Virus record (IMG/VR): IMGVR_UViG_3300032309_000931
Coordinates: 29,876 to 93,875 of that record
Length of the DNA: 64,000 bases
Reading direction: 5' to 3' (one strand)
DNA from: a virus
In this document: positions 8,872 to 59,000 of the stretch, one piece after another
Numbering within the stretch: position 1 is the stretch's first letter
Layout of the letters: each line of letters starts with the position of its first letter
Translations under genes and position numbers: made by a program
Notes under the pieces: generated by a model
What the model was told of the DNA's origin: nothing
Database searches by the model: none
What the model saw: the letters and a program-made list of their open reading frames with translations, nothing else

Positions 8872-8940
8872 ATTAATTAATTATATACTGTTTTTTACAA
8901 CAATGTAATATTGTTCTTACATTTAAAATTATAGCACAAT

Positions 8941-28010: not shown

Positions 28011-28172
28011 CTAGGCTAGTGGAATCCAAGACCCACACTCTAGGCACGTGTCCGTAGCAACGTGGAACCAAGATTCTTCGTCACACACTACGCAGTCAGC
28101 GATAGCGTATCCTTCAACGTGCTGTCCACTAGCGAGCATTTCGTCACATTCTTCTGAGAGTAGCATTTCCAT
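28011..28172 (-). CDS. 53-aa CxxC..CxxC zinc-binding micro-protein (inverted cassette)
   Basis: MEMLLSEEC...CVVC...CLEC; AAAGGACA RBS and TGTCCG-N10-TAGTAT promoter on minus strand. Confidence 0.7.
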   Translation of the reverse strand: MEMLLSEECDEMLASGQHVEGYAIADCVVCDEESWFHVATDTCLECGSWIPLA

Positions 28173-28422
28173 TTGTCTGTCCTTTGTTTGTGTTTCTTTG
28201 ATATCTAAATACTATGTCATAGCACGGACATATAACTACCAATACCGCACATATTTAGGTGAACAATAGGTTAACAAATTTTGCGCCCCCCACGCAACAT
28301 TCTTGCGTGTTTTTACGACTTACGCAATAAATCCCCAAATAGCCTGTTTTTAGCCCTATTCTGGTAGTTTTATGTCGGTGGTCGATGTTACACTAAATAT
28401 ATAAACAAACAGAGAAACCAAA

Positions 28423-28487
28423 GAGAGTGAGCCTCTCAGAGCAAATAAGACCCAAAGGGTATGAGCCTCTCAGAGCAAATAAATCTC
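28423..28487 (+). ncRNA. tandem RUGAGC-hairpin-CAAAUAAR structured element (2 units) in 5' leader
   Basis: GAGA[GTGAGC CTC TCA GAG CAAATAAG]ACCC AAA GGGT[ATGAGC CTC TCA GAG CAAATAAA]TCTC. Confidence 0.5.
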
Positions 28488-28513
28488 AAGGTTTCAGATA
28501 AGGATAGAAAATA

Positions 28514-28624
28514 ATGAATGAATTTCACGGAAATTGCCAAAAGTGTGGCACTTGGAATCGAATTGCGTTTGTAGGTTCGATGTCCCTTAGCCAATTGCTT
28601 TGCAAGGCTTGCCGTAACAAGTAA
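28514..28624 (+). CDS. 36-aa zinc-finger micro-protein
   Basis: MNEFHGNCQKC...LLCKACRNK; AAGGA RBS. Confidence 0.75.
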   Translation: MNEFHGNCQKCGTWNRIAFVGSMSLSQLLCKACRNK

Positions 28625-28816
28625 GCCCCATAGCTTGTGCATAAGTTATCCACAGGCGGCGCACCACCATATCTAGTAACATACTGACATTTACGTACTA
28701 CATATAGATTCCCCTGAATTATAACAAAATGGTAACATAGCGTAACAATAGGGCATATCGATTAGTTATATGTCGGTGGTCTGTGTTAGGCTGTAGACAT
28801 AAAGAAAGGAAATGAA

Positions 28817-28939
28817 ATGAACGAATTTCACGGTAACTGCCAGAACTGTAAGGTCTGGACAAAGGTAGCCTTCAATGGCTCAATGGGTCTGAGTGAGTTG
28901 CTCTGCTCGCTCTGCCGTATGACACAGGCTACCAAGTAG
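28817..28939 (+). CDS. 40-aa zinc-finger micro-protein (paralog of 28514..28624)
   Basis: MNEFHGNCQNC...LLCSLCRMTQATK; AGAAAGGA RBS. Confidence 0.75.
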   Translation: MNEFHGNCQNCKVWTKVAFNGSMGLSELLCSLCRMTQATK

Positions 28940-28991
28940 TTTCGTGTCGTACCTCTAGGCTATACTGATAACAACAAGTAAGGACAAACAA

Positions 28992-29171
28992 ATGGAAATC
29001 GAAAACGAAATCGACATCAACGAAGTTGAGGACATCAACATCAACACTCTCACGCCTAAGCAAATGGCACTACGCCTAAACGCTCTCGTTCGTTTGGCTC
29101 AGGGTGAAACATTCACTACCCACGATTTTGAGGAAGCCCTAACGCTCACTCGCAAACTGGCTAAGCGATAG
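28992..29171 (+). CDS. 59-aa hypothetical protein
   Basis: own promoter, AAGGACA RBS. Confidence 0.7.
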   Translation: MEIENEIDINEVEDININTLTPKQMALRLNALVRLAQGETFTTHDFEEALTLTRKLAKR

Positions 29172-29179
29172 GGGAACCA

Positions 29180-29269
29180 ATGCTAGTCTCAAACATCGCC
29201 ACAGTAATTTGTGTGCTACTAATCGGATACCTAATAATCTACATCGCTCAGGAGATAAGCAATGACTAA
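29180..29269 (+). CDS. 29-aa hydrophobic (single TM) peptide
   Basis: MLVSNIATVICVLLIGYLIIYIAQEISND. Confidence 0.5.
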   Translation: MLVSNIATVICVLLIGYLIIYIAQEISND

Positions 29270-29351
29270 ATGTAAAGAGTGTAAGCGTAACCTAACTGTA
29301 ATAATCGAAAACTATCCTGATTTGTGTTGGTCGTGTGTGATGGAACAGTAG
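29262..29351 (+). CDS. 29-aa CxxC..CxxC micro-protein
   Basis: MTKCKEC...LCWSCVMEQ; AGGAGA RBS. Confidence 0.6.
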   Translation: MTKCKECKRNLTVIIENYPDLCWSCVMEQ

Positions 29352-29520
29352 GCGGATCGACTTATCCACAGCCCCCGAAAAGTTATCCACAGGGGGGCGC
29401 AAACTTATCCACAGCCTGTTAGTAACTTAGTTACGAATTGTTACGAACTTTCCCTAAAATTCCCTAGTTTTATGTCGGTGGTCAATGATAAAATGTAAAC
29501 ATACAAGCAAAGGACAAAAA

Positions 29521-29637
29521 ATGAACTGGTATCAAGTACTCGTAGAGTATGATGAAATGATTGGCACAATCTATGTTGCGGCAGATGAATTGGAAGCATT
29601 CAAGGCAAAGTATAAAGTGCTAAGCGTAATCATCTAG
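29521..29637 (+). CDS. 38-aa hypothetical protein
   Basis: promoter + AAAGGACA RBS. Confidence 0.7.
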   Translation: MNWYQVLVEYDEMIGTIYVAADELEAFKAKYKVLSVII

Positions 29638-29693
29638 GGTTTCGTGTCGGTGGTCGCTGGTATACTAATAACATAAACAAGAAAAGGACAATA

Positions 29694-29834
29694 ATGACAA
29701 AGAGTCGATACACAACCGTACTGGTGGAAATGCCAGACAAGATTTTTTTCCAAGCAATCCACATCTATGATTGGGCTAAGGAAATCGAATACTTGAAATC
29801 TCAGGGTGCTACTTCTATCACTATAGCCAAGTAG
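29694..29834 (+). CDS. 46-aa hypothetical protein
   Basis: promoter + AAAGGACA RBS; stop abuts a DnaA box. Confidence 0.7.
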   Translation: MTKSRYTTVLVEMPDKIFFQAIHIYDWAKEIEYLKSQGATSITIAK

Positions 29835-29843
29835 TTATCCACA

Positions 29844-29893
29844 GGGGTATCGAATGAGCCTGTAGTTATCCACAGCAAATAAGTCGATACCCC
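29844..29893 (+). ncRNA. RUGAGC/CAAAUAAR structured element
   Basis: GGGGTATCGA[ATGAGC CTGT AGTTATCC ACAG CAAATAAG]TCGATACCCC. Confidence 0.5.
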
Positions 29894-30026
29894 CAAAGTT
29901 ATCCACAGGCTGCGCCCCACGCAAGTTTATTGCGTCTTTATGAAGATAGTTGCGTTTTCCCTGAATTGGGGGGTTTTATGTCGGTGGTCGGCTGTATACT
30001 GATAACATAGACAGAAAAGGACAACT

Positions 30027-30206
30027 ATGACAAATCAACTCCCAGAAAACAAGGCAACTGCCGAACAGTATGAAACTCTCAAATCGCTTATCACAAAGCG
30101 TTACCCTGACGCAGACCTGCTTCACATCTACGCTTCACTCTCAGGCGTACTTTCAGTAGGCGTATCTGAAGAGGCTATGGCACGACTTATCGAACTACAC
30201 CAGTAG
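30027..30206 (+). CDS. 59-aa hypothetical protein
   Basis: promoter + AAAGGACA RBS. Confidence 0.7.
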   Translation: MTNQLPENKATAEQYETLKSLITKRYPDADLLHIYASLSGVLSVGVSEEAMARLIELHQ

Positions 30207-30258
30207 TTTCGTGTCGGTGCTCACCAGTATAATTGTAATACAAGCAGAAAAGGAAAAA

Positions 30259-30492
30259 ATGGAACAACTAATCGGAACAAACGTAAAAACACACAACCAC
30301 GCTTATCTTGGTGAGGTTCGCAACGTGTCTAGACTGTTTGTAAAGCCTATCTATCGTCACCTGAGAGGCATTGAGGCTAACGAGCCTTATGTTGCCTACG
30401 CTGTCGAAATCGAAGGCTCGGACAGTCCTAAAGGCTGGACAACGCTTATCGCTCGTGATGAAGCAGACATCCTGAAGCGTTACGCAGTCTAA
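30259..30492 (+). CDS. 77-aa hypothetical protein
   Basis: start reassigned to MEQLIG after AAAAGGA RBS. Confidence 0.7.
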   Translation: MEQLIGTNVKTHNHAYLGEVRNVSRLFVKPIYRHLRGIEANEPYVAYAVEIEGSDSPKGWTTLIARDEADILKRYAV

Positions 30493-30499
30493 TCCGTAA

Positions 30500-30541
30500 G
30501 GGGAGAGAGTGAGCCTCGCAAGAGCAAATAAATCTCTCCCC
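30500..30541 (+). ncRNA. RUGAGC/CAAAUAAR structured element
   Basis: GGGGAGAGA[GTGAGC CTC GCAA GAG CAAATAAA]TCTCTCCCC, GNRA tetraloop. Confidence 0.5.
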
Positions 30542-30704
30542 AAACAGGATACATTCCAAAATGGGAATGTGTGTCAATCTCAAAAAAATGCGCCCCCCCC
30601 CACCCCTAGCCTTAATTACGAATTAAGAAAACAAATCCCAGATTCCCGAATTAGATGTCGGTGGTCAATGTTATACTGTATACATAACGAAAGGACATAA
30701 GCAA

Positions 30705-30971
30705 ATGGCTTACTCAAACACTCACGCAGATTTCTACCAGACGGCTATGGGGACTATGGTCACAGAGCCTCAGTCGGCTTGGGATACCTCTACTCACTGT
30801 GCAGACTGTGGCGTTCAGTACGCTTACTGTGGCTGCCCCAACGAGGACATTGACGAGCCTGTTGATGGCTTTGCTGTCTGTGCTGTCTGCGACTATACCG
30901 TTCGTGGACTATTCTATCTCAATGGGGATTCAACTGGTCGCTGTGCTGGATGCCATAACTCTATTCGATAG
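30705..30971 (+). CDS. 88-aa double zinc-finger-like protein
   Basis: CADC..CGC..CAVC..CAGC; promoter + RBS. Confidence 0.7.
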   Translation: MAYSNTHADFYQTAMGTMVTEPQSAWDTSTHCADCGVQYAYCGCPNEDIDEPVDGFAVCAVCDYTVRGLFYLNGDSTGRCAGCHNSIR

Positions 30972-31110
30972 GAGTTATCCACAGGCTGGGGCGCAGCTTT
31001 TGATCCTAGACATAATTACGTAAGCATTAAAAATACCCTGGAAATTTCCCTAGTTTTATGTCGGTGCTCAGATGTATAATTATATTATCAACCAAACAAA
31101 GGACAAAGTA

Positions 31111-31662
31111 ATGACTACTCTCACCGCTAACGAAATTCACACCGCAACTGCTACAGATTTGTACCGTGACCTGATTGTTCGTGCTACTCTTGGACAGGTC
31201 GAACAGGCTAGTGTCTGGTATCACGAAGCACAAGAAGTTGCCCAAGAGGTTGCTCGTAATCTGGACACAACGCTAGAGGTTGGTGCTAGTGTCGTATCTG
31301 CGTTTTCTCCTCGTGAGCGTTGGGCAAGCAACATCGAAAAGGCTGTGGCGTTCTCACTTGGACACACGCCTAAAGGATTGGGCAACAACCTCAAAATGGC
31401 ACAGTCCTCGCTGACTGCTGGATTCTATGCCCTCAAGGGTCTCAAGACTAATGCGTTTGCTCGTGCCATTGCTGGAGATACTGACGCTGTTGTGATTGAC
31501 ATTTGGATGATGAGAGCGGCAGGTATGGAAACTGATAGCCCAACTCAAGGACAGTATTTCGCACTCTCACTTGCTTGCCGTAATGTCGCTAAAGAATTTG
31601 GGCTTACTCCTCGCACCGCACAGGCTCTGATTTGGATTCTCGTGAGAGGCTCAGCAATCTAA
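31111..31662 (+). CDS. conserved phage protein, possibly HhH DNA-glycosylase-like
   Basis: WY..A..SP...W..N, G.KT.AF..I, V.ID.W, AQA..W pattern; start after AAAGGACA. Confidence 0.45.
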   Translation: MTTLTANEIHTATATDLYRDLIVRATLGQVEQASVWYHEAQEVAQEVARNLDTTLEVGASVVSAFSPRERWASNIEKAVAFSLGHTPKGLGNNLKMAQSSLTAGFYALKGLKTNAFARAIAGDTDAVVIDIWMMRAAGMETDSPTQGQYFALSLACRNVAKEFGLTPRTAQALIWILVRGSAI

Positions 31663-31778
31663 GGGCTACCCCGAAAGGGGTTGCGCCCCACGCAGCTTTC
31701 TTGCGTAATTACGAACAATTTTTGTTTTTCCCTAAATTTGGGTAGTTATGTGTCGGTGCTCTGATGTATACTAATACT

Positions 31779-31943
31779 ATGAAGAAAAAGAACCCAACTC
31801 ACAAAGGTATTGAGAACAAGCCCTACATTGAGGCTATGCGTGAATTGCGTAGGTCTAACGCAGCCACTACCCACGACAACCGCCCTAACCGTTTGCGTAC
31901 TCGCAAAGCAATCAAAACCCAAGCAATCAAGGAGAACGAATAA
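31779..31943 (+). CDS. 54-aa basic protein (leaderless)
   Basis: ATG 6 nt after TATACT; MRELRRSNAATTH..RP.R.RTR. Confidence 0.7.
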   Translation: MKKKNPTHKGIENKPYIEAMRELRRSNAATTHDNRPNRLRTRKAIKTQAIKENE

Positions 31944-32110
31944 TGGAATGTGAATTCTGCACTAATGAAAAACTGGCTACCGTTTCGGTTATGCACCTGC
32001 GTGACCGTATCGAACAAGCCGCCTGTGGCAAGTGTGCCAACGACCTATCTGATGAAAAGTGGGTAGTCACTCACGAATTCGACACATCTATCTGGGATTT
32101 TGCAGGGTAG
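31943..32110 (+). CDS. 55-aa CxxC..CxxC micro-protein
   Basis: MECEFC...ACGKC; TAATG coupling. Confidence 0.7.
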   Translation: MECEFCTNEKLATVSVMHLRDRIEQAACGKCANDLSDEKWVVTHEFDTSIWDFAG

Positions 32111-32165
32111 TTATGTGTCGGTGGTCTAGGTTATAATAGTAATACGAACAAAGAAAAGGACAGAA

Positions 32166-32339
32166 ATGAAAAAGTACAACTTCACTGGTTTCGCATTCGG
32201 TAGTAACGGAGAAATGGTTTTCCGTATTGAGGTTCTGAACCACACCGAAAACGGAACAAATGTTTCCACCCAAATCGATTTGGAACTCACACCAGAGGAA
32301 CGAACCGAACTCATCACCCAACTTATCTCAATCAAGTAG
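32166..32339 (+). CDS. 57-aa hypothetical protein
   Basis: promoter + AAAGGACA RBS. Confidence 0.7.
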   Translation: MKKYNFTGFAFGSNGEMVFRIEVLNHTENGTNVSTQIDLELTPEERTELITQLISIK

Positions 32340-32390
32340 TTTGGTGTCGGTGCTTCACGCTATAATAGAACTACGAACAAAGGACAATAA

Positions 32391-32570
32391 ATGAAAGACA
32401 CAATCAACCGTTCAGGTGAGGTAATCGAAAATCTCACAATCGCACAGGGTGACCGCCGTTATGCTTACGCATTTGCGTTTGGATTTGCGTGGTCTTTGCT
32501 CTCGGAAAAGAACCGTAAAGAGTTGCTGAAAATCTCAGAACGAAAAGCACAAGAAAAGGACAACGACTAA
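32391..32570 (+). CDS. 59-aa hypothetical protein
   Basis: promoter + AAAGGACA RBS. Confidence 0.7.
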   Translation: MKDTINRSGEVIENLTIAQGDRRYAYAFAFGFAWSLLSEKNRKELLKISERKAQEKDND

Positions 32571-32767
32571 TGACAAAGTATCCAGAAATCGAAGTACAAC
32601 TTACAGGACAAGACGGCAACGCATTCGCAATTATGGGTGCGGTATCTCGTGAACTCCGCAAGGCTGGGGTATCCAAAGAGGAAATCAACGAATACACTAC
32701 GCAATCTATGTCTGGCGACTATGACAACCTTTTGCGTACTGCTATGGCTTGGGTGAGTGTATCCTAA
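32570..32767 (+). CDS. 65-aa conserved phage protein
   Basis: LTGQDGNAFAIMG.V...LRKAG....MSGDYDNLL; coupled. Confidence 0.75.
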   Translation: MTKYPEIEVQLTGQDGNAFAIMGAVSRELRKAGVSKEEINEYTTQSMSGDYDNLLRTAMAWVSVS

Positions 32768-32946
32768 TGATGACACGCAAAGACTATGTAGCCGTTTCAG
32801 AATTGCTGAACACCTACGCTCTCAAAATAGATGAGCAAACATTCGACCTACTCATTCACGACTTTGCTGGACTGATGGCAAAGGACAATGAGCGTTTCAT
32901 CGCTGACCGTTTCATCTCCGCTTGCTGGAATGGCGAGAATGCTTGA
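32767..32946 (+). CDS. 59-aa conserved phage protein
   Basis: MTRKDY..., DN.RF..DRF..AC; TAATG coupling. Confidence 0.7.
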   Translation: MMTRKDYVAVSELLNTYALKIDEQTFDLLIHDFAGLMAKDNERFIADRFISACWNGENA

Positions 32947-33123
32947 GATTATTGTTATCACGCTGGGGGTATTGGCAGTACTCCTGGCGTGGTTCAATGA
33001 CTAAAATTTTGCGCCCCCCTGCCCTCACAAACCTATTACTAACCTTACGATCTTTTTCCCGAAATTCACAGAGTTTGATGTCGGTGGTACTTGGTATAAT
33101 AGAAACATAACGAAAGGACACTA

Positions 33124-33429
33124 ATGAACGACGGAACATACCTCAACCTTGACGGAAAGTTTATTCTCTCTCACGCCAAGTCTGGCTATTGGGTAGCCGT
33201 TCACAAGTACGACAGCCTTGACGACACTATTTCAGGGGATTACGTAGGCGTGTGGACAAATCCCGAAACTGGCGTTATGTACCTTGACCGTAGCGTTTGG
33301 GTGTCTGACTTGGACAACGCTATCGCTCTGGGTAAGTCACAAGGACAATTGGCTATCTGGGACTGTGCCAATGAAACAGAAATCTGGCTCAACGAATACT
33401 TTGCCGATGTATTCAAAGACGAAGTTTGA
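33124..33429 (+). CDS. 101-aa hypothetical protein
   Basis: promoter + RBS; YVGVW..YLD..Q.AIWD. Confidence 0.75.
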   Translation: MNDGTYLNLDGKFILSHAKSGYWVAVHKYDSLDDTISGDYVGVWTNPETGVMYLDRSVWVSDLDNAIALGKSQGQLAIWDCANETEIWLNEYFADVFKDEV

Positions 33430-33457
33430 TGTCGGTACTCCCCTGTATAATTAGACT

Positions 33458-33568
33458 ATGAACGAACAATTTATCGAATGCCCCCAATGTGGCGACACAG
33501 TAATCGAATCCGATATGCGTGAGGTAGGCGTATGTTGGGAATGTGACTATCTACCAGAGGAGAAATAA
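33458..33568 (+). CDS. 36-aa CxxC..CxxC micro-protein (leaderless)
   Basis: ATG 6 nt after TATAAT; CPQC..CWEC. Confidence 0.7.
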   Translation: MNEQFIECPQCGDTVIESDMREVGVCWECDYLPEEK

Positions 33569-33847
33569 ATGGGAAGAATGTTTGTAGAGAGTATCAAGGA
33601 ACTTGGCGATATCGAATTAGAGGATATGGTGAGTATGCACTTCAGTAGCAATTGCTACCCCCCAATTCCACAGTTTATGGTGCAGTCAGCGGTAGCCGCT
33701 ATCAACGCTTGCAACTATGGTGACTACAATGAGGTAATCCAATTGCCACACGGAGTCACTTACAGGGGTAGTGAGTTTGTTGATGCAGCCACCTATGTCG
33801 AAGCACACCGCCTTGAGGGATTCGTAGAATGGGAGTATGAGGACTAA
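33569..33847 (+). CDS. 92-aa hypothetical protein
   Basis: GAGGAG RBS; H..SNCYPPIP. Confidence 0.7.
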   Translation: MGRMFVESIKELGDIELEDMVSMHFSSNCYPPIPQFMVQSAVAAINACNYGDYNEVIQLPHGVTYRGSEFVDAATYVEAHRLEGFVEWEYED

Positions 33848-33936
33848 TGGACTGGGAAAACGTAATTGACTGGAAAGTTGTTGACAGGTTGACAGACGAA
33901 CAGGTATCCGCTATACTGGATATGTTCGACAAGTAA
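33847..33936 (+). CDS. 29-aa hypothetical peptide containing an internal TTGACA-N17-TATACT promoter
   Basis: TAATG coupling; TTGACA 33889, TATACT 33912. Confidence 0.5.
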   Translation: MDWENVIDWKVVDRLTDEQVSAILDMFDK

Positions 33937-33943
33937 GGATAAA

Positions 33944-34117
33944 ATGACTGACTATATACTCAAATATCAGGTATGGAATGGACACGAGGACGGTAAGTTG
34001 GCAACGTTCCGTCACTTGGAACAGGCACAACTGTTTGTCGATAGCGTGAGAGCATTCTATCCCAAGGTATTTGTTTATGATGTTTTGACTGGACAACGAT
34101 TGGTGAGTGCAGACTAG
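33944..34117 (+). CDS. 57-aa hypothetical protein
   Basis: AAGGA RBS. Confidence 0.6.
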   Translation: MTDYILKYQVWNGHEDGKLATFRHLEQAQLFVDSVRAFYPKVFVYDVLTGQRLVSAD

Positions 34118-34238
34118 GAGCTGCGCCCCCCTCGTTACCAAACATCTATTAAGAATTACGAATAATTATCCAGATTCCCAGAGTTATATGTCGGTGGTCA
34201 GGGGTATACTTATAAGACAGACAAGAAAAGGACACACA

Positions 34239-34640
34239 ATGGGACAATACCACAGCATTTACAACCTTGACAAGCAAGAGGTTATTCACCCACACGACAT
34301 TGGTCTTGGGGCAAAGCAGCGTGAACACACAGGTCACACTGCCTCACTGTCAGATATGATGTATATCCTGACAACCTGCTCACCTATGCGTGGCGGAGGG
34401 GATTTCGTAGCAGAGGTTATGAAGGACTTCATTGGGCGTTGGGCAGGTGACCGTTGCGTAGTTATTGGTGACTATGCTGAACCTAGTGACTTGCCAGATG
34501 TGGATTTCTCTACCCTCAAAGATTTCACAGATATTTCTGGAGAAGCACGAGCCTTTATCTTTGAGGTATATGGTATCCATTTCCGAACGGTTGACTATGG
34601 TTTGGAAAGAGTTTACCCTGAGAATTCAGACAGAGTTTGA
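34239..34640 (+). CDS. 133-aa conserved phage protein
   Basis: start MGQYH after AAAGGACA; GRWAGDR.V.IGDY. Confidence 0.75.
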   Translation: MGQYHSIYNLDKQEVIHPHDIGLGAKQREHTGHTASLSDMMYILTTCSPMRGGGDFVAEVMKDFIGRWAGDRCVVIGDYAEPSDLPDVDFSTLKDFTDISGEARAFIFEVYGIHFRTVDYGLERVYPENSDRV

Positions 34641-34689
34641 TGTCCGTGGTAGACGGTATAATTGTAGTAACAACAACGAGAGGACAACT

Positions 34690-34950
34690 ATGTTAGACAA
34701 AGCATTTGCTCTAAAGAAAGTAACCGAAGACATAACTACAGACCCAATGGTTATGTACGCTGGCTTTCTTGTAATGCAAGCAGAAACCGAAGACGAGCGT
34801 AACTCTGCTCTGAACAACTTTGGACAAACAATCACAGGACTTATGGCATTTGCTATGTCGGAACTCCTGCTGTCGGAAGAGGACTTCACCGCCCTCACCG
34901 AAACAATTGGGGAACTTATCGAAATTGGTGAAATTGGAGAAGAGGACTAA
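34690..34950 (+). CDS. 86-aa acidic hypothetical protein
   Basis: promoter + GAGGACA RBS. Confidence 0.7.
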   Translation: MLDKAFALKKVTEDITTDPMVMYAGFLVMQAETEDERNSALNNFGQTITGLMAFAMSELLLSEEDFTALTETIGELIEIGEIGEED

Positions 34951-35093
34951 TGTCTGAAATTATAATTAGGCTTGACACCGCTCACGCAGAGACCCTCATT
35001 GGGTTTCTTGGAGAGTTCTTGGATGGAGAGTTCGCTGAGGAAGAGTGCTTCATCAACTTGTACAACAAACTAGTAAGGGAGATGAACTACTAA
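34950..35093 (+). CDS. 47-aa hypothetical protein
   Basis: TAATG coupled both sides. Confidence 0.6.
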   Translation: MSEIIIRLDTAHAETLIGFLGEFLDGEFAEEECFINLYNKLVREMNY

Positions 35094-35491
35094 TGGAAAA
35101 CCAGCACCCAGTACTTTCACAACTCAATCAAGAAGTCTCAGACCTGAAGCAGCAGGTGGAGTTCCTTCGAAGTGAACGTGACCGTCTTTTGGCTAACTAC
35201 TCACAGGACGTAGAGAACACTCGTGCAATTCTTATCGAAGCAATTGTCGACGGAACAGACGTTAGGACGTTGGCAAACTCTATCGCTGATGTGTTTGCTA
35301 TCTCGCTCCTCAAGTCAGTCACAGTATCAATGGTGATGAATGTTGAAGCGACAATGGTGGTTCCTGCTGACTACGACATTAGCAACCTTGAAATTGGGGA
35401 TGTTCAGGTTCATTGCTACAACTCAGATGTTGAAGACTTTAGCGTTGAATCATTTGACATCATTGACATCGAAGAGGCTAAGTATACATAA
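35093..35491 (+). CDS. 132-aa coiled-coil hypothetical protein
   Basis: start MENQHP, AAGGGAG RBS. Confidence 0.7.
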   Translation: MENQHPVLSQLNQEVSDLKQQVEFLRSERDRLLANYSQDVENTRAILIEAIVDGTDVRTLANSIADVFAISLLKSVTVSMVMNVEATMVVPADYDISNLEIGDVQVHCYNSDVEDFSVESFDIIDIEEAKYT

Positions 35492-35502
35492 TAGCTAGGT
35501 TC

Positions 35503-35576
35503 CCACTGTGGTATTCTTGTCCTTTCCTGCAGTGGTGATAGGTCCTGGATATGACCTTTATAAACTGTCCTTTCTT
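35503..35576 (+). ncRNA. anti-SD hairpin plus H-type pseudoknot
   Basis: CCACTGTGG-TATTCTTGTCCTTT-CCTGCAGTGG then GGTC CTGGATAT GACC..TAAAC TGTCC TTTCTT. Confidence 0.5.
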
Positions 35577-35757
35577 AGTACCCTGCCGAGATCGGTGGAC
35601 CTGCGCCCCCCTGCCCCAGCAAACAAGTTACGAACTGTTACAAAAATCCCCTGATTTGATTTGTTTTATGTCGGTGGTCATTGGTATACTTGTATTACAG
35701 GCAGGGAGATGAAGTCGGAAGTCCCCACAAAAAAAATAAAAAAGTTTGAGAATAGAC

Positions 35758-35786
35758 TTGACAAACTCTCTCCCAGCCTGTATAAT
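35758..35786 (+). promoter_or_regulatory. consensus sigmaA promoter
   Basis: TTGACA-N17-TATAAT. Confidence 0.8.
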
Positions 35787-35842
35787 AGTAATAACGAAGC
35801 AAACAAAACAGTTGGCTCACTACAAGGAAGCAGGTAACACAA

Positions 35843-35989
35843 ATGGGAGAAATCCAAATCGGTTCACAGTTCACCACGCAGAAGTCAGGCGTTGTCGGAA
35901 CGGTTCAGGAAATCGTCAAGAACGCAAACGGCACAAGCCGTGTTCGCCTCACCGTCAATGGTGCAGACCGCTGGACTACCGTAAAGTAG
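35843..35989 (+). CDS. 48-aa beta-rich (SH3-like) micro-protein
   Basis: MGEIQIGSQFTTQKSGVVGTVQEIV...RWTTVK behind consensus promoter. Confidence 0.7.
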   Translation: MGEIQIGSQFTTQKSGVVGTVQEIVKNANGTSRVRLTVNGADRWTTVK

Positions 35990-36120
35990 TCTAGTTTGGG
36001 GAGGTAGGAGGAACGGCTCTGAATACCTAGTAGACTACCTCCCCCACTTACAACTCAATAGTTTCGTGTCAGACCCCAATGATACAATGGATACATAAGC
36101 CAATAGAAAGGACTAAACCA

Positions 36121-36576
36121 ATGGCTCGTTCACTCTCCGTGAAAATCCCAACCGCAACTCTTATCGCTGATGTTGAGGCAACTATTGCCAAGATTGAGGC
36201 AGAGATGGCTACATACCCTGCCGATATGGAAGCATACCGCAAGGCAAGCAAGGCACACCAAGACTTGGTTCTCAAAGCAGTTATTGAGGCAATCAAGAAC
36301 CCTGACAACATTGGTGACACCTATGACCAGAACGCTCTTGTTCGTGTCAGTAGCAACCGCTATGGTCGTAACGGCGTTAGCATTGAGGTAAACACCGATT
36401 TGCTCAACCTGCCTAGCGAACCTGAATGTCCAACTAACCCTAACGAGAAAACTCACTATGGGCGTGAATACACCACCAAGTTGGACTTGCTCAAGAAAAA
36501 CCTCAAGGTTCTCAAAATGACTAACCAAGAGGAAGTCAATGCCTCCACTTACAATACTGTAATGGAACTTCTCTAA
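36121..36576 (+). CDS. 151-aa hypothetical protein
   Basis: start MARSLSVK after AGAAAGGA RBS and motif promoter. Confidence 0.75.
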   Translation: MARSLSVKIPTATLIADVEATIAKIEAEMATYPADMEAYRKASKAHQDLVLKAVIEAIKNPDNIGDTYDQNALVRVSSNRYGRNGVSIEVNTDLLNLPSEPECPTNPNEKTHYGREYTTKLDLLKKNLKVLKMTNQEEVNASTYNTVMELL

Positions 36577-36584
36577 CGAGAAAT

Positions 36585-36680
36585 GTGCTGGGTATCACTA
36601 GAAACTGCCTCCTGAATTGGGGTAGCGACTAGACAGGTAAAATAATTTCGCTCTAACCTGAGTATGTGGTTAAACTGCTC
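36585..36680 (+). ncRNA. two CU..WAAAC-UG H-type pseudoknots flanking a third pseudoknot-like element
   Basis: 36585-36610 and 36656-36680 with compensatory pairing. Confidence 0.5.
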
Positions 36681-36706
36681 ACCCTATAACTACACAGAGA
36701 AACATT

Positions 36707-36778
36707 GGCTTCATAGTGAAAAGGTTATCACACTACCCTGTCGAGGTAGAAGTTAGGGTTCGAGTCCCTATGAGGTCG
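36707..36778 (+). tRNA. tRNA-Asp(GTC)
   Basis: GGCTTCA/TGAGGTC acceptor, CTACC-CTGTCGA-GGTAG anticodon arm, TTCGAGT T-loop; no encoded CCA. Confidence 0.85.
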
Positions 36779-36886
36779 CTTCCCTTGAAATAGAGGGTGA
36801 GTTGCTAGTTGCAGATGATACTAGATAGGTTAGAGATACTAGGGTGAGATGATGTCCTCTATTCCGAAGTAAACTTTCACACACTA

Positions 36887-36938
36887 ATCCCCTGCGAAGC
36901 GTCTGGATAGATTGCTGGTAGCAGGGGATTTTTGTTTT
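36887..36938 (+). terminator. terminator
   Basis: ATCCCCTGC...GCAGGGGAT followed by TTTTGTTTT. Confidence 0.65.
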
Positions 36939-37080
36939 GGGGAATCGAGCTGCGCCCCGACTTTGTTAGAACATACTTATTACGGATTGGTTACGAAAGC
37001 CCCAAAAATGTTCCCGAAACTTGTTTTATGTCGGTGGTCAGGAGTATAATAGAACTAACAACGAAAAAGAAAGGTATGAA

Positions 37081-38103
37081 ATGGCTCACGAATTAGAAAT
37101 CGGTGCTAACGGCGAGGTTGCTTTTGCTTCCTTGCGTGAACCTGCTTGGCACAAGTTGGGTACTGTCTTTGAAGACGAGGTATCAACTTCAGAAATGCTC
37201 AAGTTGGCTCACTTGGACAACTGGAATGTTCGCCTTGAGGAATTGACTTTCCCTGAAGGCTATGTCTCAGACAAGACAAACTACTTTGTTTGTCGCACTA
37301 ACCCATTCGACAAGACACAGAATGATGTGCTTGGCGTTGTGGGTGAACGCTATCACACTATGCAGAACGAGGACTTGTTCACCTTTGGTGACAACCTGCT
37401 TGACGGTGGTGGCAAGTGGGAAACCGCTGGCTCAATCAAGGGTGGGCGTGTAGTCTTTGGCTCTCTCGCTCTTGACAACGAAATGGTGCTTGACCCCAAT
37501 GGTCGTGCTGACAAGGTAGACAGTTACCTCCTTATCAACACCAGTCACGATGGCTCTATCTCCATTATGGCTTCGATTACCCCTGTGCGAGTTGTGTGTG
37601 CAAACACTCTCAACCTTGCTCTTGGTGGTGGCGTAGGCAAGTGGCGTAATGTCAAGCAGTCGTTCAAAATTCGTCACACTCAGACGGCAGAGGGCAAGGT
37701 TCAAGTTGCTCGTGAAGCACTTGGTTTGGCTCAGACTTACCTTGACGAGTTCTCCGTTATGGCTAACGCTATGATTGAGACTGAGGTTACTAAGTCAGAG
37801 TTTGACCAGATTGTTGCTCTTGCTTACCCTGCCCCTGAGAAAGACGCTAAGGGTTCGTTCAAGAAGCACAACGACAAGATTGAACTCATCAACGACATCT
37901 ATGTTGGTGACTACAACAACACGATTGCTGGTACTGCTTGGGGTACGCTCAACGCTCTCACAGAACGCCTTGACTGGTATCGCTCTGCTCGTGGTGGCAA
38001 CAACGAAAGTATCCTTGCTGGTGCTAGTGGACTTGACCCTGCTCTCAATGCAGAAAAGAACCGCTTGGCTCGTATTGTCGCAAGCGTAATGCTGGGAGTG
38101 TAA
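37081..38103 (+). CDS. DUF932 / TIGR03299 phage-plasmid family protein
   Basis: MAHELE..PAWHKLG, LGVVGERY..QN, ETAGS..GG..VF, SHDGS, TPVRVVCANTL, RHT, GTAWG..NALTE. Confidence 0.85.
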   Translation: MAHELEIGANGEVAFASLREPAWHKLGTVFEDEVSTSEMLKLAHLDNWNVRLEELTFPEGYVSDKTNYFVCRTNPFDKTQNDVLGVVGERYHTMQNEDLFTFGDNLLDGGGKWETAGSIKGGRVVFGSLALDNEMVLDPNGRADKVDSYLLINTSHDGSISIMASITPVRVVCANTLNLALGGGVGKWRNVKQSFKIRHTQTAEGKVQVAREALGLAQTYLDEFSVMANAMIETEVTKSEFDQIVALAYPAPEKDAKGSFKKHNDKIELINDIYVGDYNNTIAGTAWGTLNALTERLDWYRSARGGNNESILAGASGLDPALNAEKNRLARIVASVMLGV

Positions 38104-38109
38104 TCCCTA

Positions 38110-38136
38110 ACTGCTAGGCAACAGTCTAAACTGCCT
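38110..38136 (+). ncRNA. H-type pseudoknot (4th copy)
   Basis: ACTG CTAGGCAA CAGT CTAAAC TGCCT. Confidence 0.5.
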
Positions 38137-38316
38137 CCCCTTTGGGGGATCGACTGGGGATAAGTTATGCACAGGAGCTGCGCCCCAAAAATTCTAACAT
38201 AGATAACTAATCATAAAAAAACAATTACGAACCTCGTAAAAAATCTCCCGAATTCCTCTTGTTATATGTCGGTGGTACGCAGTATAATTGAGGTATCCCC
38301 TAATGGAAGGTATGAA

Positions 38317-38529
38317 ATGAAGAAGTTTGATATTCGTGCTACCTATGAGTATGTAGCAGAAGGTATCATTGCTGAAGATGAAGATGCGGCTTATAACATC
38401 TTCCTTGCAAATCTCAACGACTACTACTCTGGCACAGAAGACCTAGAGATTGAAGAAGACGGAGATGTTTGCGAAGACTGTGAGCAAGACATTGACGAGT
38501 GTGATTGTGAGGAAGAAGATGCTGACTGA
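38317..38529 (+). CDS. 70-aa acidic protein with C-terminal Cys cluster
   Basis: promoter + GGAAGG RBS; CEDC..CDC. Confidence 0.7.
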   Translation: MKKFDIRATYEYVAEGIIAEDEDAAYNIFLANLNDYYSGTEDLEIEEDGDVCEDCEQDIDECDCEEEDAD

Positions 38530-38585
38530 ACACTGTGTACCCAATGACAATGACCTGTGTATGTTCTGTGGAGAGGATATGAGTA

Positions 38586-38828
38586 ATGTCTACTACTGAT
38601 GATTGGAAGCCTGATATGTTTATTACATACCGCTTCGTTTCCGACTTTGCTATTGTGACGTTCAACGTTCCAGGTATGGCTGAGTGGGACGACGAGCAAT
38701 GGGATTCTGTAGCACACACAGACCTTGCCTCATATGTGACTGAGCCTGAAGCATACTGGGAAGACGAGCAATGGCAAGTTGAAGACGGTAGGGAGCAGTA
38801 CGAGACATATGGAAGGGTATCCCTATGA
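38586..38828 (+). CDS. hypothetical protein
   Basis: GAGGA RBS. Confidence 0.65.
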   Translation: MSTTDDWKPDMFITYRFVSDFAIVTFNVPGMAEWDDEQWDSVAHTDLASYVTEPEAYWEDEQWQVEDGREQYETYGRVSL

Positions 38829-38995
38829 GTGATAACCTAGAGACTTATTATGAAGTCAACGAACGTGAAGTAGCCAAACAAGAGATTACGAGCAAGATTG
38901 ACGAATTGCTGGAATCGAGTTCTATGTCGTACCTCGATGCTAAAATAGGACTAAACCTAATAAAGACATTCATCAAATTTATGGACGAGGAGTAA
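38825..38995 (+). CDS. 56-aa hypothetical protein
   Basis: ATGA overlap; contains internal motif promoter at 38925. Confidence 0.6.
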   Translation: MSDNLETYYEVNEREVAKQEITSKIDELLESSSMSYLDAKIGLNLIKTFIKFMDEE

Positions 38996-38996
38996 G

Positions 38997-39158
38997 ATGA
39001 AGACCTATCAAGTAGAATACAATGCTACCTATTGGGTAGAAGCAGATAGCGAAGAGCAAGCAATCGAACTGGCTATCATTCAGCACGAAGATATGCCTGA
39101 CGGTGATTGGGAAGCAATGATTGACCCCTATGACAGCAATAACTTTGGAGATAAGTAA
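38997..39158 (+). CDS. 53-aa hypothetical protein
   Basis: GAGGAG RBS; MKTYQVE..VEADSEEQA. Confidence 0.65.
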   Translation: MKTYQVEYNATYWVEADSEEQAIELAIIQHEDMPDGDWEAMIDPYDSNNFGDK

Positions 39159-39394
39159 TGATTACTTGGGACGAATGGGAAGATACCTATAAGCCTACTA
39201 CCCCTTTGGCTATCGAAGACCTATCAGAGATTGACAAGGACTTAGACTATCACTACATCTGGACTATGGTGGACGGTGACGGACGGTATGCTGACCTGTA
39301 CTCTGGTATTTATATCGTCAACCGTCTTGGTTACTTTGTTACTGAAGTACCGTGGACAGAAGAAGTATTCGTGACTGACCAAAAGGATATCTAA
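39158..39394 (+). CDS. hypothetical protein
   Basis: IWT.VDGD..G...VNRLGYFVTEVPW. Confidence 0.7.
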   Translation: MITWDEWEDTYKPTTPLAIEDLSEIDKDLDYHYIWTMVDGDGRYADLYSGIYIVNRLGYFVTEVPWTEEVFVTDQKDI

Positions 39395-39716
39395 TGAAGT
39401 GTGAACTAGAAAGTTGCAGCAAAGTCGGAAGGTATGAAGATGTAGAAGAGTTCTACATTCTTTGTGAAGAACACTATGAGCAAGTAGTGAAAGGAACCAT
39501 ATATGGATAATCAGATCGTTTCTTATATCAATGACCAGCTACCAGAAATTCTTGAGAGCCGTGACTATGCACTTGCTAATGATGATTTCGAATCTGAATA
39601 TTTGGATGGTATTGTAATGGCATATCAACATATCATTGATAAGTTCTCTTACGAACGCCCTTGACAAAATCCCGAAATCTTGGTACAATAGTATAACCCC
39701 TAACAAAAGGAAAACA

Positions 39717-40235
39717 ATGCACGTTCTACAATACATCGCAATAAAAGCAGATAGCCCTGAAGAAGCAATTGATAGTGTTCGTTCAACTCTAGAATCAATG
39801 CTAGGCAATGACGGTTCCACTAGTTCCTGGTACGACTGGTTCATCACTGGCGGTGGACGATTCAATCCCAATGCTGAACCATACAAAGACGGAGAAACTA
39901 ATATGGTTGTTTCTTCTAAGGATAGTAAAGCATTCGAAAAGATTCTGGATGAATCAATTGAGGCACGTCTCTCGGAATTCCGTCGGTATGTCGAAGAGTG
40001 GAAGCGTAGCAATATCAATCTTGATTCTTACTTTGAAGAGTATGACGGTGCTATGGACTACTCTATGAAACTGTACTCTCTTGGCAAGATTATTGATATG
40101 GCTCAAGGTGAGTGGGACTTCAACTCTTACTTCTTTGACCTTCACAACTGGTCAACCAATCCTGTTCATATGACTAAAGACCGTATCAACAATGACGGTG
40201 TTTGGTTCCTCGTCCCTGTGGACTTCCACTTCTAA
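39717..40235 (+). CDS. 172-aa conserved phage protein
   Basis: start MHVLQYI; TTGACA-N17-TACAAT at 39661-39689; WYDWF..GGGRF, VPVDFHF. Confidence 0.75.
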   Translation: MHVLQYIAIKADSPEEAIDSVRSTLESMLGNDGSTSSWYDWFITGGGRFNPNAEPYKDGETNMVVSSKDSKAFEKILDESIEARLSEFRRYVEEWKRSNINLDSYFEEYDGAMDYSMKLYSLGKIIDMAQGEWDFNSYFFDLHNWSTNPVHMTKDRINNDGVWFLVPVDFHF

Positions 40236-40243
40236 GGAGAATA

Positions 40244-40387
40244 ATGAAAGAATATACTATTGAAGTTACCCACACTCCCACTGGTCAGTACTTCACCCTT
40301 ACCGCCTCATATGACGAGGACTATGACTACGAGTCAATCGTAGAAGATATCGCTAAAGACCTTAGCATTGATGTAGAGGAGAACTAA
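40244..40387 (+). CDS. 47-aa hypothetical protein
   Basis: AAGGAG RBS. Confidence 0.6.
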   Translation: MKEYTIEVTHTPTGQYFTLTASYDEDYDYESIVEDIAKDLSIDVEEN

Positions 40388-40749
40388 TGAGAGGCACACG
40401 TATACTGGACCTGAACATCTTCTACCGTGAAAGCTGGTCTAAGGAGACTGGTAGTACCTGGAGCGAAACGTTTACCATCGAACCATACATCCGTGAGGAA
40501 GACGACGAGGGTATTCGAAACATTGAGACTAACTATCTTATTGAATGTGATGAATACGAGACTGCATATCTTGCTAAGCAATTCCCTGAAGAGGAGTACG
40601 GCAGTGACTTCTGGATATTTGCAGACGAAGTTGACATTCCTACACGTCGTATTGCGAAGGTACTCAAAGAGATCGATTTAAGCCAAGATTATTTTCCACG
40701 GTCAGCAGTACACGCATTAACAATCACAGAGCCTGTCACAATGAAGTGA
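40387..40749 (+). CDS. hypothetical protein
   Basis: GAGGAG RBS, coupled. Confidence 0.65.
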   Translation: MRGTRILDLNIFYRESWSKETGSTWSETFTIEPYIREEDDEGIRNIETNYLIECDEYETAYLAKQFPEEEYGSDFWIFADEVDIPTRRIAKVLKEIDLSQDYFPRSAVHALTITEPVTMK

Positions 40750-40863
40750 CGGACACGTAGACGTTGAATGGGGGTTCCGTCTACAAATTGGTGGGGACGC
40801 AAGTTTTTATTTCCTTTCAGACTTGCGTTCCTGCCTCACTTTTGGTATAATTGACTGAGGAGT

Positions 40864-41067
40864 ATGATGAGAAAAGTAGTAACCAACGAGGAGAAAGTGG
40901 CAAAGCGATTATCAGATTCGATTTCAGACTTGCGTTTGGACTTGGAAATGATTTCACTTTACCTTTCACAGATTTCACCAAATGTAACAATCAACCGTAT
41001 TCTGCTTATGGCAGAGTTTCTAAAAGAAGAAAAAGAGGGAACACAAAATGACTACGACTACCTTTGA
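40864..41067 (+). CDS. hypothetical protein
   Basis: TTGCGT..TGGTATAAT promoter, GAGGAG RBS. Confidence 0.65.
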   Translation: MMRKVVTNEEKVAKRLSDSISDLRLDLEMISLYLSQISPNVTINRILLMAEFLKEEKEGTQNDYDYL

Positions 41068-41323
41068 GAACAAGTGCGTTATCCTGTCTGACCTTTGGCT
41101 GAACTATCGCTATGACAAAGAGTTTGCCGACTTTATCGAATACAATGATATGGGCTTGCCACTTGCCTACACCTTGTCTGAGGGAATTGTCAATGGTACA
41201 GATATGTCTACCAAGTTTATTGACGAGACTTTTGACCTTTTGCTTAGTGGTCTAGAGATTGAGGACACAGGCTTTGAGAGTCTAGACGAGTTGTTGTCTA
41301 CTGGTGGTAGTCTACAAGAATAA
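41048..41323 (+). CDS. hypothetical protein
   Basis: GAGGGA RBS; F..YND.GLPLAY. Confidence 0.7.
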   Translation: MTTTTFENKCVILSDLWLNYRYDKEFADFIEYNDMGLPLAYTLSEGIVNGTDMSTKFIDETFDLLLSGLEIEDTGFESLDELLSTGGSLQE

Positions 41324-42100
41324 TTATCCACAGGGGGGTAGCTCTATCCACAGAGTTATCCCCAGGTGGGCGCACTTTGTTATAACATACTAACAAACAT
41401 ACCATTTACGAACAGGCATTAAGAACTCCCAAATATATTTCCCAAATTTTACAGACATTACGAGGGACTTCAAAAAATCGCTGAAAGTTTGGAGGGTATC
41501 AGATGATGTCCTATTCTCCCTATATATAATACATATACCTATAGACATTACGATCTTATGTTTGATACCCCCGAAATGTGGATATGTCTAATAGGATTGT
41601 TTGGTATAGATATTTGGGGGCAGCTAAGTATAAGCATTTCCCCCTATATAACTATAAACAAATACATTACGAACCCTTGATTATTTTTCCCAGATTTGTG
41701 GATATTTCTGATATAAAATAGGATGTTTTGACATATTTATACACAATATATAGGGATTTTTGGGCATAATTATACTATATATAGGGGTTGACAAATGGGA
41801 TATTTTGTGGTAGATAGGAGGTTTGGATGTGGGGACACTATATGTTGTGGTTGGGATTACGATCCGCTACGATATGTGGGCTCTATATCTCAAACAACTT
41901 TCCAAACATCCTCTTTCAGTCAGATAATATCCATATCAGTAAGATGATTGTGGATAACTCTGTGGATAAATGTGTCCAAATCAGCCGCAGGATACGTTCT
42001 AAGGAGCTATATCCTCTGATGTCAAACAGGTGTGTATGCTCAAAACCATCTAGTCATATAGGTGATTATAGATACTATAGGTTATAGGTTATATAGGGAA
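41324..42100. other. AT-rich non-coding ori/terminus-like region
   Basis: inward-facing DnaA boxes at both ends, five (A)TTACGA repeats, CCCTATATA/TATATAGGG inverted repeats, at + to - strand switch. Confidence 0.55.
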
Positions 42101-43270: not shown

Positions 43271-43496
43271 CGTTTTCTCCCTCAATAAGTTTAATATAGT
43301 CTTTAGTTATAAAGATAAAGTTGTTGAGTTGTTCTTCAAAAAATCCATTGTCGTTATCAAGTTCTACTTGCAATGTTTTTATCTGACGCTCAAGCAATTC
43401 AATTATGCGTTTACGTTCATCTAAACGGACGCTTGCCTCAAACTGTTCAGCCTTACGTTTCTGCTGTTCAGCATAGTGGTCGTATGGTTTATTCAT
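43263..43496 (-). CDS. hypothetical protein (ERKRII.LL type)
   Basis: TAATG coupled. Confidence 0.55.
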   Translation of the reverse strand: MNKPYDHYAEQQKRKAEQFEASVRLDERKRIIELLERQIKTLQVELDNDNGFFEEQLNNFIFITKDYIKLIEGENDD

Positions 43497-58926: not shown

Positions 58927-59000
58927 AGCCATCTGTGAGATTCGAACTCACGACTTCGATATTACAAGTATCGCACTCTGACCAACTGAGTTAAGACGGC
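58927..59000 (-). tRNA. tRNA-Thr(TGT)
   Basis: CGATA-CTTGTAA-TATCG canonical. Confidence 0.9.

Follow-up and report, generated by a model that had tools for sequence, protein, structure and literature searches.

The joints between the early gene cassettes of an uncultured 94-kb freshwater phage of actinobacteria carry a short sequence word, and this word holds every copy of the palindrome GCGC that is found in the genome. The stretch analysed, called the window below, is 64,000 nucleotides long and constitutes positions 29,876–93,875 of the 93,875-bp virus record IMGVR_UViG_3300032309_000931, which is 87% complete; the whole record (G000) was also counted, and coordinates are those of the window. 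The phage uses host PafBC-type promoters, and its early genes form an array of small cassettes. GCGC is one of several palindromes that are strongly depleted in the genome, and an earlier note on this DNA had proposed that the copies left at the cassette boundaries are islands of restriction or methylation sites. The best joint explanation, to which we give a probability of about 0.6, is that GCGC is kept for the job of the word in which it stands and not as a restriction-site island.

By exact count GCGC occurs 13 times in the window, and the same 13 are the total for the whole genome, where 74 would be expected from a second-order Markov model and 159 from base composition; in the window the expectation from base composition is about 113. 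All are intergenic according to the calls of open reading frames (ORFs), and as intergenic DNA makes up 29% of the array (28.2–41.4 kb), finding 13 out of 13 there has a chance of about 1e-7. The 13 coordinates, the absence from the rest of the window, the location at module boundaries and an expectation on the order of 100 had been given in the earlier note from a manual scan, and all agree with the exact counts. The same note had taken CCGG, GGCC and CATG to be absent, which is correct for CCGG (0) and GGCC (0), but CATG is found once, at position 63950; CGCG is also found once. The lowest genome-wide ratios of observed to expected are those of CCGG, GGCC, CATG and CGCG, followed by CGGG, and GCGC is sixth.

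All 13 copies are part of TGCGCC, nine in forward and four in reverse orientation (GGCGCA), with a C-run following in most of them. GCGC is the core of a 7-nt junction word, N-TGCGCC with a C-run, and the words are located as follows:

28282–28291, plus strand, junction word TGCGCCCCCC, 90 nt upstream of the promoter at 28373
28658–28663, minus strand, junction word GGCGCA, directly after a TTATCCACAGG DnaA-type box
29392–29401, minus strand, junction word consisting of a G-run and GCGCA, after a DnaA-type box
29911–29918, plus strand, junction word TGCGCCCC, after a DnaA-type box, 67 nt upstream of the promoter at 29979
30589–30601, plus strand, junction word TGCGCC with a long C-run, 66 nt upstream of the promoter at 30656
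30988–30995, minus strand, junction word GGGGCGCA, after a DnaA-type box and overlapping an AGCT
31682–31689, plus strand, junction word TGCGCCCC, a pivot of the DUF7178-cassette transposition
33010–33019, plus strand, junction word TGCGCCCCCC, a pivot of the DUF7178-cassette transposition
34122–34131, plus strand, junction word TGCGCCCCCC, preceded by AGC, which gives an AGCT
35602–35611, plus strand, junction word TGCGCCCCCC
36951–36958, plus strand, junction word TGCGCCCC, boundary A, upstream of the DUF932 gene (alignment of orthologous boundaries)
38179–38186, plus strand, junction word TGCGCCCC, boundary B (alignment of orthologous boundaries)
41367–41374, minus strand, last junction word GGGCGCA, after three DnaA-type boxes and with a decayed promoter module downstream, closing the array

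A DnaA box precedes 6 of the 13 words, and some paralogous joints have longer flanks in common (AATTTTGCGCC twice and GAGCTGCGCC three times). The genome contains 24 runs of at least 7 nt with only G or C, and 13 of these are at the joints, namely 12 junction words and a run at 29371; the remaining ones contain none of the four avoided palindromes.

The word has a set place relative to the promoters. The consensus of PafBC promoters is tGTCgg(N10)tA(N3)T (PMC8635444), and 17 promoters of this type, TGTCGG-N10-TANNNT, are found in the array at 28373–38288, all on the plus strand:

Promoter starts, plus strand, first part: 28373, 28771, 29473, 29645, 29979, 30212, 30656, 31059, 31751
Promoter starts, plus strand, rest: 32116, 32345, 33079, 34189, 34641 (TGTCCG variant), 35669, 37029, 38267

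A full boundary reads, from 5' to 3', a trailer with hairpins and often TTATCCACAGG boxes, the word, TTACGAA repeats, a TCCCNGAAT box and the promoter, and the promoter module between the word and the next cassette is about 100 nt long. Twelve of the 17 promoters have a word 66–113 nt upstream, seven of them at 66–68 nt and the others at 76, 77, 87, 90 and 112 nt. Every full boundary has one word, and there is none at the five promoters that abut the preceding stop codon; since these lack it, and since the 13th word stands at the close of the array, the word belongs to the joint and not to the promoter core. The suggestion that a GCGC lies just upstream of each promoter is thus too wide, as it leaves out the five wordless promoters, and the word at 41370 has no such promoter. 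The word is found in both orientations, and therefore a role in double-stranded DNA is likelier than one in RNA. The wordless internal promoters are those at 29645, 30212, 32116, 32345 and 34641, none of which has an upstream module. In at least four of them the preceding TAG stop is about 8 nt before TGTCGG (TAG-TT-N3-TGTCGG), a stereotyped overlap of stop and promoter that is less clear at 34641. Near-consensus σ70-type promoters (TTGACA-17/18-TATAAT-like) are also present in the array, at 33889, 35463, 35758 and 39661, and the distal third (38.3–41.3 kb) has no PafBC-type promoter.

With the DUF932 protein of the array as bait 12 related loci (L numbers below) were found, and four whole records (G001–G004) were compared with the present phage. 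GCGC counts and joint words are:

G000, the present phage: GCGC 13 observed, 74 expected; TGCGCC 13 times, in the array only
G004: GCGC 12 observed, 71 expected; TGCGCC 10 times and two variants, in the array only
G003 (partial): GCGC 11 observed, 39 expected; CGCGCC 10 times (CCGCGCC nine times), with CGCG overlapping GCGC, in the array only
G001 (91.7 kb): GCGC 0 observed, 62 expected; CCGAGCC 12 times, 11 of them in the array, at orthologous boundaries
G002 (103 kb): GCGC 0 observed, 93 expected; GGGCCC 13 times, in the array only

In the alignments the orthologs of boundary A have CCGCGCC in L005 and L012, and CCGAGCC in L003, L004 and L006, and at boundaries A and B, where the gene neighbours are identical in all genomes, the three words stand in the same register. 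They differ by single letters; CCGCGCC contains both CGCG and GCGC, TGCGCC has lost CGCG and CCGAGCC has lost both, six of the seven positions are kept across the variants, and the joints are uniform within each genome. Since the sisters carry CCGCGCC or CCGAGCC at the same place, GCGC itself and the compatible ends of a GCGC cutter are dispensable. Conservation of GCGC at the boundaries, which the restriction-site proposal looked for in relatives, fails in G001, L004 and L006, where the boundary is kept and GCGC is gone. As CGCG and GCGC are lost in the sisters by one-letter changes, the restriction pressure reaches the word too. The sister phages show the joint word in three states of the purge (CGCG and GCGC, GCGC only, neither), a natural experiment that measures the need for the word. 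At the boundary at 34123 the sequence AGCT-GCGCC corresponds to AGCC-GCGCC in L005, so this AGCT arose as a side effect when CGCG was lost by a C-to-T change; AGCT lies within 11 nt of a GCGC in five cases, and at the other AGCTGCGCC joints it probably has the same C-to-T origin. The replacement word of G001 contains CCCGAG, an AvaI-type CYCGRG site, in the array only. In the distant relatives L007 and L008 (G002) the promoter core is a TGTCAG variant (AAAATGTCAGACC), with GGGGGCCCCC, a perfect palindrome, as the word at the joints.

Removal of GCGC is still going on, and yet the word persists. Over 70 kb the identity between G000 and G004 is 82.6%, and each has about 2,000–2,100 one-step neighbours of GCGC, so that neutral change predicts tens of new GCGC per lineage, and none is found outside the joints in any of the five genomes. 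The flanks of orthologous joints are about 78% identical, at which level a free hexamer would survive in about one quarter of the joints, yet every full boundary keeps the word, which is therefore under purifying selection under continuing selection against GCGC. A conservation profile around the word is anchored on the word and hence circular, and only the identity of the flanks was used here. The idea that GCGC is retained at the boundaries has thus stood, as it is held against an active purge, but what is retained is an asymmetric word, TGCGCC at 13 of 13 places, and not a restriction or methylation site.

The array is in addition a regional desert for palindromes, which in sliding counts begins with a sharp fall at about 28.1 kb and lasts until the counts rise again near 41 kb. 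Its features are:

28100–41400, plus strand, early 'host-takeover' cassette array with about 37 small ORFs
36707–36779, tRNA-Asp gene inside the array, between two cassettes
37021–38103, plus strand, gene for the DUF932 protein used as bait (homology search)
41324–42100, no strand, AT-rich segment without ORFs and with DnaA-type boxes, closing the array, with an ATAT/TATA density of 29–36 per 2 kb

GATC is found 0.44 times per kb in the array vs 2.86 in the rest of the genome, AGCT 0.62 vs 4.15 and TTAA 0.53 vs 6.42, and ACGT and TGCA have about half or less of their density elsewhere. TCGA shows the opposite, with 4.0 per kb in the array vs 1.6 elsewhere. With expectations from a shuffle of synonymous codons within the ORFs, the array ORFs contain TTAA 2 times vs 31, CATG 0 vs 24, AGCT 2 vs 38, GATC 2 vs 34, ACGT 16 vs 38, GCGC 0 vs 14, GGCC 0 vs 15 and CGCG 0 vs 12.5. 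The eight most depleted of the 256 tetramers are all palindromes (z −4.4 to −7.3), while in control ORFs outside the array GATC and TTAA are at expectation. The intergenic share in the array is 8 of 10 for AGCT, 5 of 7 for GATC and 6 of 8 for TTAA, and the first GATC and AGCT within ORFs are at 39514 and 39537. The earlier observation that GATC and AGCT are only intergenic between 28.2 and 39.5 kb therefore holds, with one GATC moved from 35589 to 35590, and in the array ORFs both are far below background. The further claim that they form islands with GCGC fails: with 5 GATC and 8 AGCT, each vs about 14 expected from composition, the boundaries are less purged than the ORFs and not enriched. 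The arrays of the relatives are regional deserts too, each with its own list of words, and in L003 CATG is low in the array only.

The avoided set differs among the sister phages, with CATG 0–1 times in G000 and G004, 93 times in G001 and 241 times in G002, and with GGCC absent from four genomes and found 140 times (219 expected) in G002. Palindromes as the most depleted tetramers of the array ORFs and sets that vary between sisters support a signature of restriction avoidance, as had been proposed, and we infer that restriction is the selective agent behind the depletion. In an actinobacterial metagenome-assembled genome (MAG; 57% G+C), a poor proxy for the host, the palindrome frequencies are normal. 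A regional desert would mark the 13 kb that must work before protection, and may be of use for interpreting the early regions of metagenomic phages and their anti-defence genes. In G000 the base after CCCG is A in all 21 cases and the base before CGGG is T in all four, so that the non-palindromic CCCGB/VCGGG is missing from the whole genome. Some 6-bp palindromes without avoided tetramers are also rare in G000 and G001, namely GTGCAC (0 vs 13 expected), GCTAGC (0 vs 8.5), GACGTC (0 vs 5.8), CGTACG (0 vs 5.6) and GGTACC (2 vs 14), and the same five occur at expectation in G002.

Cassettes are exchanged at the word. Relative to the arrays of G001, G003 and G004, blocks of homology begin at 0 to +5 or −3 to −7 from the words at 28283, 29912, 31683 and 33011, and blocks stop 2–3 nt before the word at 33011. 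The DUF7178 cassette lies between the words at 30991 and 31683 in the present phage, and its place of insertion in G001 and G003 is precisely the counterpart of the word at 33011. For all pairs of eight arrays, 43 of the 606 starts of high-scoring segment pairs (HSPs) fall within −5 to +9 of a word, a zone of 15 nt that constitutes 1.1% of the sequence, with a peak at 0 to +9; the ends pile up at −30 to −1, whereas positions 0 to +4 have none, +5 to +9 have six and +10 to +75 have hardly any. The same pivot is seen within the GCGC-free group of arrays. Compatible ends for cassette reshuffling, as once suggested, are thus dispensable along with GCGC, and the part of the suggestion that remains is that exchange pivots on the word. 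Which cassettes are present, and in what order, varies strongly among genomes of 82% identity. RecA is encoded by the phage, and there is no match to integrase or resolvase families (PF00589, PF00239) in the phage record. From word to word a precise unit of exchange is defined, which is of use for studying how the early-gene repertoires of actinophages are shuffled.

The DUF932 protein shares 54% identity with gp5 of Streptomyces phage Jay2Jay (L013). The gp5 gene belongs to an array of small genes that are read in the direction of the genome end, and lies in the leading 11.4 kb, of which a second copy is found at the right end. Judging from this similarity, the array is probably the counterpart of the long direct terminal repeat of the Stanwilliamsviridae, collapsed in assembly, and as the likely equivalent of a terminal repeat known from a cultured phage it is, by analogy, probably the DNA that enters first and needs to work unprotected. 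If it is terminally repeated, it would be at the front no matter from which end the DNA enters, and every site would be there in two copies. The AT-rich segment at 41324–42100 might then be a candidate for the physical genome end. In T5-like phages restriction acts only via sites in the first-step-transfer DNA (PMC10644984), the early-injected region decides the restriction sensitivity of Autographiviridae (PMC12455610), and the terminal repeat of T5 has pre-early genes and DnaA boxes, the latter also in the injection-stop region (bioRxiv 10.1101/866236). At many joints at 900–10500 of Jay2Jay, a GC-rich hairpin comes first, next a GC word like CCGGCCCGG-ACA and last a promoter-like TTGTAT...TAGACT, which is not of the PafBC type.

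According to the explanation that we favour, restriction enzymes would press the lineage continually, with CCGG, GGCC, CATG, CGCG and GCGC removed genome-wide and the early array further stripped of AGCT, GATC, TTAA and much ACGT and TGCA. The word would mark precisely where the 3' trailer of one cassette, with its hairpins and DnaA-type boxes, meets the promoter module of about 100 nt of the next, and purifying selection for a sequence-specific role at the level of double-stranded DNA would hold it against the purge. Most likely it is a binding site for a putative factor, a partner or an insulator of the promoter module. Such a factor is favoured because the distance is fixed, with classes spaced by about 10 nt, because orientation does not matter and because the words of a genome are uniform. 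As the sole sequence common to all joints at that spot the word may double as the crossover point for cassette exchange, and recombination there would be a consequence of its putative binding role. Sister lineages would have rewritten the word by single substitutions, from CCGCGCC to TGCGCC with the loss of CGCG, or to CCGAGCC with the loss of both palindromes.

Several points weigh against this explanation. Thirteen sites, or 26 if the array is duplicated, are a heavy load if a GCGC cutter is present, and the model needs either a benefit of the word that exceeds the restriction load or shielded sites. No reader protein was identified; the only divergence that tracks the word is in a 245-aa ORF at 52804–53541, in a glycosyltransferase cluster and without a family match, which is 83–84% identical in two GCGCC-word genomes and 54% in a CCGAGCC-word genome. 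The host is resolved only to actinobacteria, and the putative terminal-repeat and first-entry status rests on synteny with a relative that is 47–54% identical in the compared proteins. The HSP ends are not independent, as orthologous junctions are counted in several genome pairs, and recombination itself could maintain the word without a binding factor.

Such a joint for recombination only, in which no protein reads the word and the word is a GC-rich microhomology for RecA-type joining and a compatibility tag of one cassette pool, we regard as unlikely. It would explain the uniformity of the word by joints that are made, or were recently homogenised, by exchange at that place, and it is in agreement with the pivoting of the homology blocks, the 8–10 identical G/C-rich letters that the words share, the longer flanks common to paralogous joints, the variable cassettes in a phage that has RecA and no site-specific recombinase found, and the precedent of the promoter-early stem-loops (PeSLs) of T4-type phages (PMC2839356). 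However, boundaries A and B keep their flanking genes in all genomes and still bear a genome-specific word, and therefore the word has changed there without cassette exchange. The far longer conserved promoter core should also be the preferred crossover site, and second-order selection for shuffling would be weak compared with the restriction cost of 13 sites. It is quite improbable that the word is instead a site where a phage enzyme nicks or cuts, as in T5, where the nick consensus is R/GCGCRGG (PMC3517423). By this analogy it would be a lineage-specific target with a break or single-stranded DNA (ssDNA) about 100 nt upstream of each PafBC-dependent promoter, and the breaks would give recombination hot spots; PafBC is activated by ssDNA (PMC11804915). 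That the T5 sites are asymmetric 7-mers with GCGC, that the T5 repeat contains pre-early genes and DnaA boxes, and that the word is both genome-specific and the pivot of exchange are all consistent with this. Yet the flanks of T-GCGC-CCC mismatch the T5 consensus on either strand, the words are on both strands (9:4) where T5 nicks on one, and no fitting nickase was found, the one HNH gene (58991–59383) being missing from G004, which has the same word. If nicking were true, the phage would carry its own trigger for the ssDNA alarm activator of the host, and co-infecting relatives with a common word would swap entire cassettes as a result of the breaks.

We give very little credence to the proposal of the earlier note, that the sites are kept as restriction or methylation sites in the form of sacrificial cuts, decoys or sensors that time early expression. 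The avoidance of GCGC elsewhere together with its conservation at the joints of three sister genomes is what this would predict, and the AvaI-type site in the replacement word of G001 might be read in the same way, but nothing supports the individual roles. The flanks are asymmetric at all 13 sites, a sister lineage keeps the architecture without GCGC, the word of G002 is built on GGCC, which is only mildly under-represented there, and the boundaries have fewer AGCT and GATC than expected. Searches for a phage methyltransferase gave nothing (no match to the three main Pfam families, PF00145, PF01555 and PF02086, in the 87%-complete record), and cuts in a terminal repeat would be expected to destroy the redundancy needed for replication. 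Just as doubtful is an unspecific GC clamp or a remnant of a terminator stem, for which any patch of G and C would suffice and would nearly always bear a palindrome. More than half of the long G/C-only runs (13 of 24) are at the joints, some words can pair with nearby G-runs, and the joints of Jay2Jay have a GC-rich hairpin followed by a GC word. None of the other G/C runs of the genome includes any of the four palindromes, which means that a G/C patch need not contain GCGC; moreover, the words are identical within a genome and one-letter variants of each other between genomes, one of them containing A, and their predicted pairing is inconsistent (0.18–0.99).

The proposed binding word resembles several known systems in part. 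As in the PeSLs of T4-type phages, a repeated motif of promoter and structure, here with 17 promoters and 12 full boundary modules, flanks small variable ORFs (PMC2839356, PMC4122927), and breakpoints of insertion, deletion and replacement are at the motif; unlike the PeSLs, the pivot is a separate genome-specific GC word about 67 nt upstream of the promoter, and the promoter class differs. The T5 nick sites are likewise asymmetric, with 7–8 nt built on GCGC, and belong to a phage that has a long terminal repeat, but have different flanks and lie on one strand, and the likeness is one of sequence alone. With the first-step-transfer DNA of T5 and BF23 the array has in common a block of small early genes of about 10–13 kb, DnaA boxes and a probable long terminal repeat, and as in T5, BF23 and the leading region of Autographiviridae the early block is purged of restriction sites more than the rest of the genome. 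In contrast to T5 and BF23, the present phage is an unrelated Stanwilliamsviridae-like actinophage with host PafBC-type promoters, the rest of its genome is also heavily purged, and its order of entry would follow only by analogy. The host-takeover module of the Bacillus phage SPO1 consists of many short operons, each with its own strong promoter. To our knowledge no junction word or regional purge of sites has been described for it. With the present array it has in common the small early genes, the length of about 13 kb and a place in the terminal repeat, which for the array is probable (PMC6873191, PMC10531801), and it differs in host phylum and promoter type. As in other cases of palindrome avoidance in phages, the depletion is specific for palindromes, goes beyond codon usage and has a word list that varies between close relatives; what differs is that one avoided palindrome survives, and only inside a repeated functional word. 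Clusters of methylation-sensor sites of the Dam type are found in P1 pac and Mu mom, and unlike these the methylatable site is not conserved here (G001, L004 and L006 have no GCGC). Unlike integron-like cassette sites, the joints are not accompanied by a match to a site-specific recombinase (PF00589, PF00239).

Other roles and readers were rejected. A terminator scan was at chance, and in predicted folds the pairing of the word is inconsistent, with probabilities of 0.18–0.99 and changing partners, which speaks against a hairpin or terminator; an Rfam search matched the tRNA alone and nothing at the word. The reverse word at 29397 can pair with GCCCCC at 29371 to form a hairpin with a DnaA-type box as loop (pair probability 0.99), and the relatives examined have no matching G-run for this hairpin at 29371–29400, so that conservation is not apparent. 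A Chi-like or host motif was not supported, since 235 kb from an actinobacterial MAG with a related phage contig (57% G+C, a poor proxy) contains the words about as often as expected. The distance classes near 67, 76 and 87 nt gave only a weak periodicity (R about 0.4) from non-independent data, and helical phasing was not retained. A mini-origin with a DnaA box and the GC cluster as unwinding element would need the box at more than 6 of the 13 words. A DenV-type pyrimidine-dimer glycosylase and ThyX were dismissed as readers, as their sharing by G000 and G004 lies in a mosaic region.

The portal protein is 47% identical to those of Streptomyces BE-cluster phages in the family Stanwilliamsviridae; by megablast there are no close relatives of the array among deposited phages, and close relatives are found in assemblies from Lake Mendota and Lake Baikal. 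The promoter core ATGTCGGTG occurs 56 times, vs 6 for the reversed control (about ninefold), on many contigs of an actinobacterial MAG from Lake Baikal (G008), which suggests a large PafBC-type regulon there. The Stanwilliamsviridae-like portal, a WhiB protein, the PafBC-type promoters and the excess of ATGTCGGTG in the actinobacterial MAG together establish the host as an actinobacterium. Besides WhiB and RecA the genome codes for a DnaB-type helicase, a DnaG-type primase, ribonucleotide reductase, ThyX and dCMP deaminase. The mosaic region includes, at 43496–43975 and 47138–48113, a gene for a T4 endonuclease V-type pyrimidine-dimer glycosylase (DenV-type) that is present in G000 and G004 only, and ThyX with an adjoining ORF, which is present in G000, G004 and G002 and absent from G001 and G003. 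Two ORFs without a family match are clustered at 50330–54572 with at least three glycosyltransferase-like genes on the plus strand.

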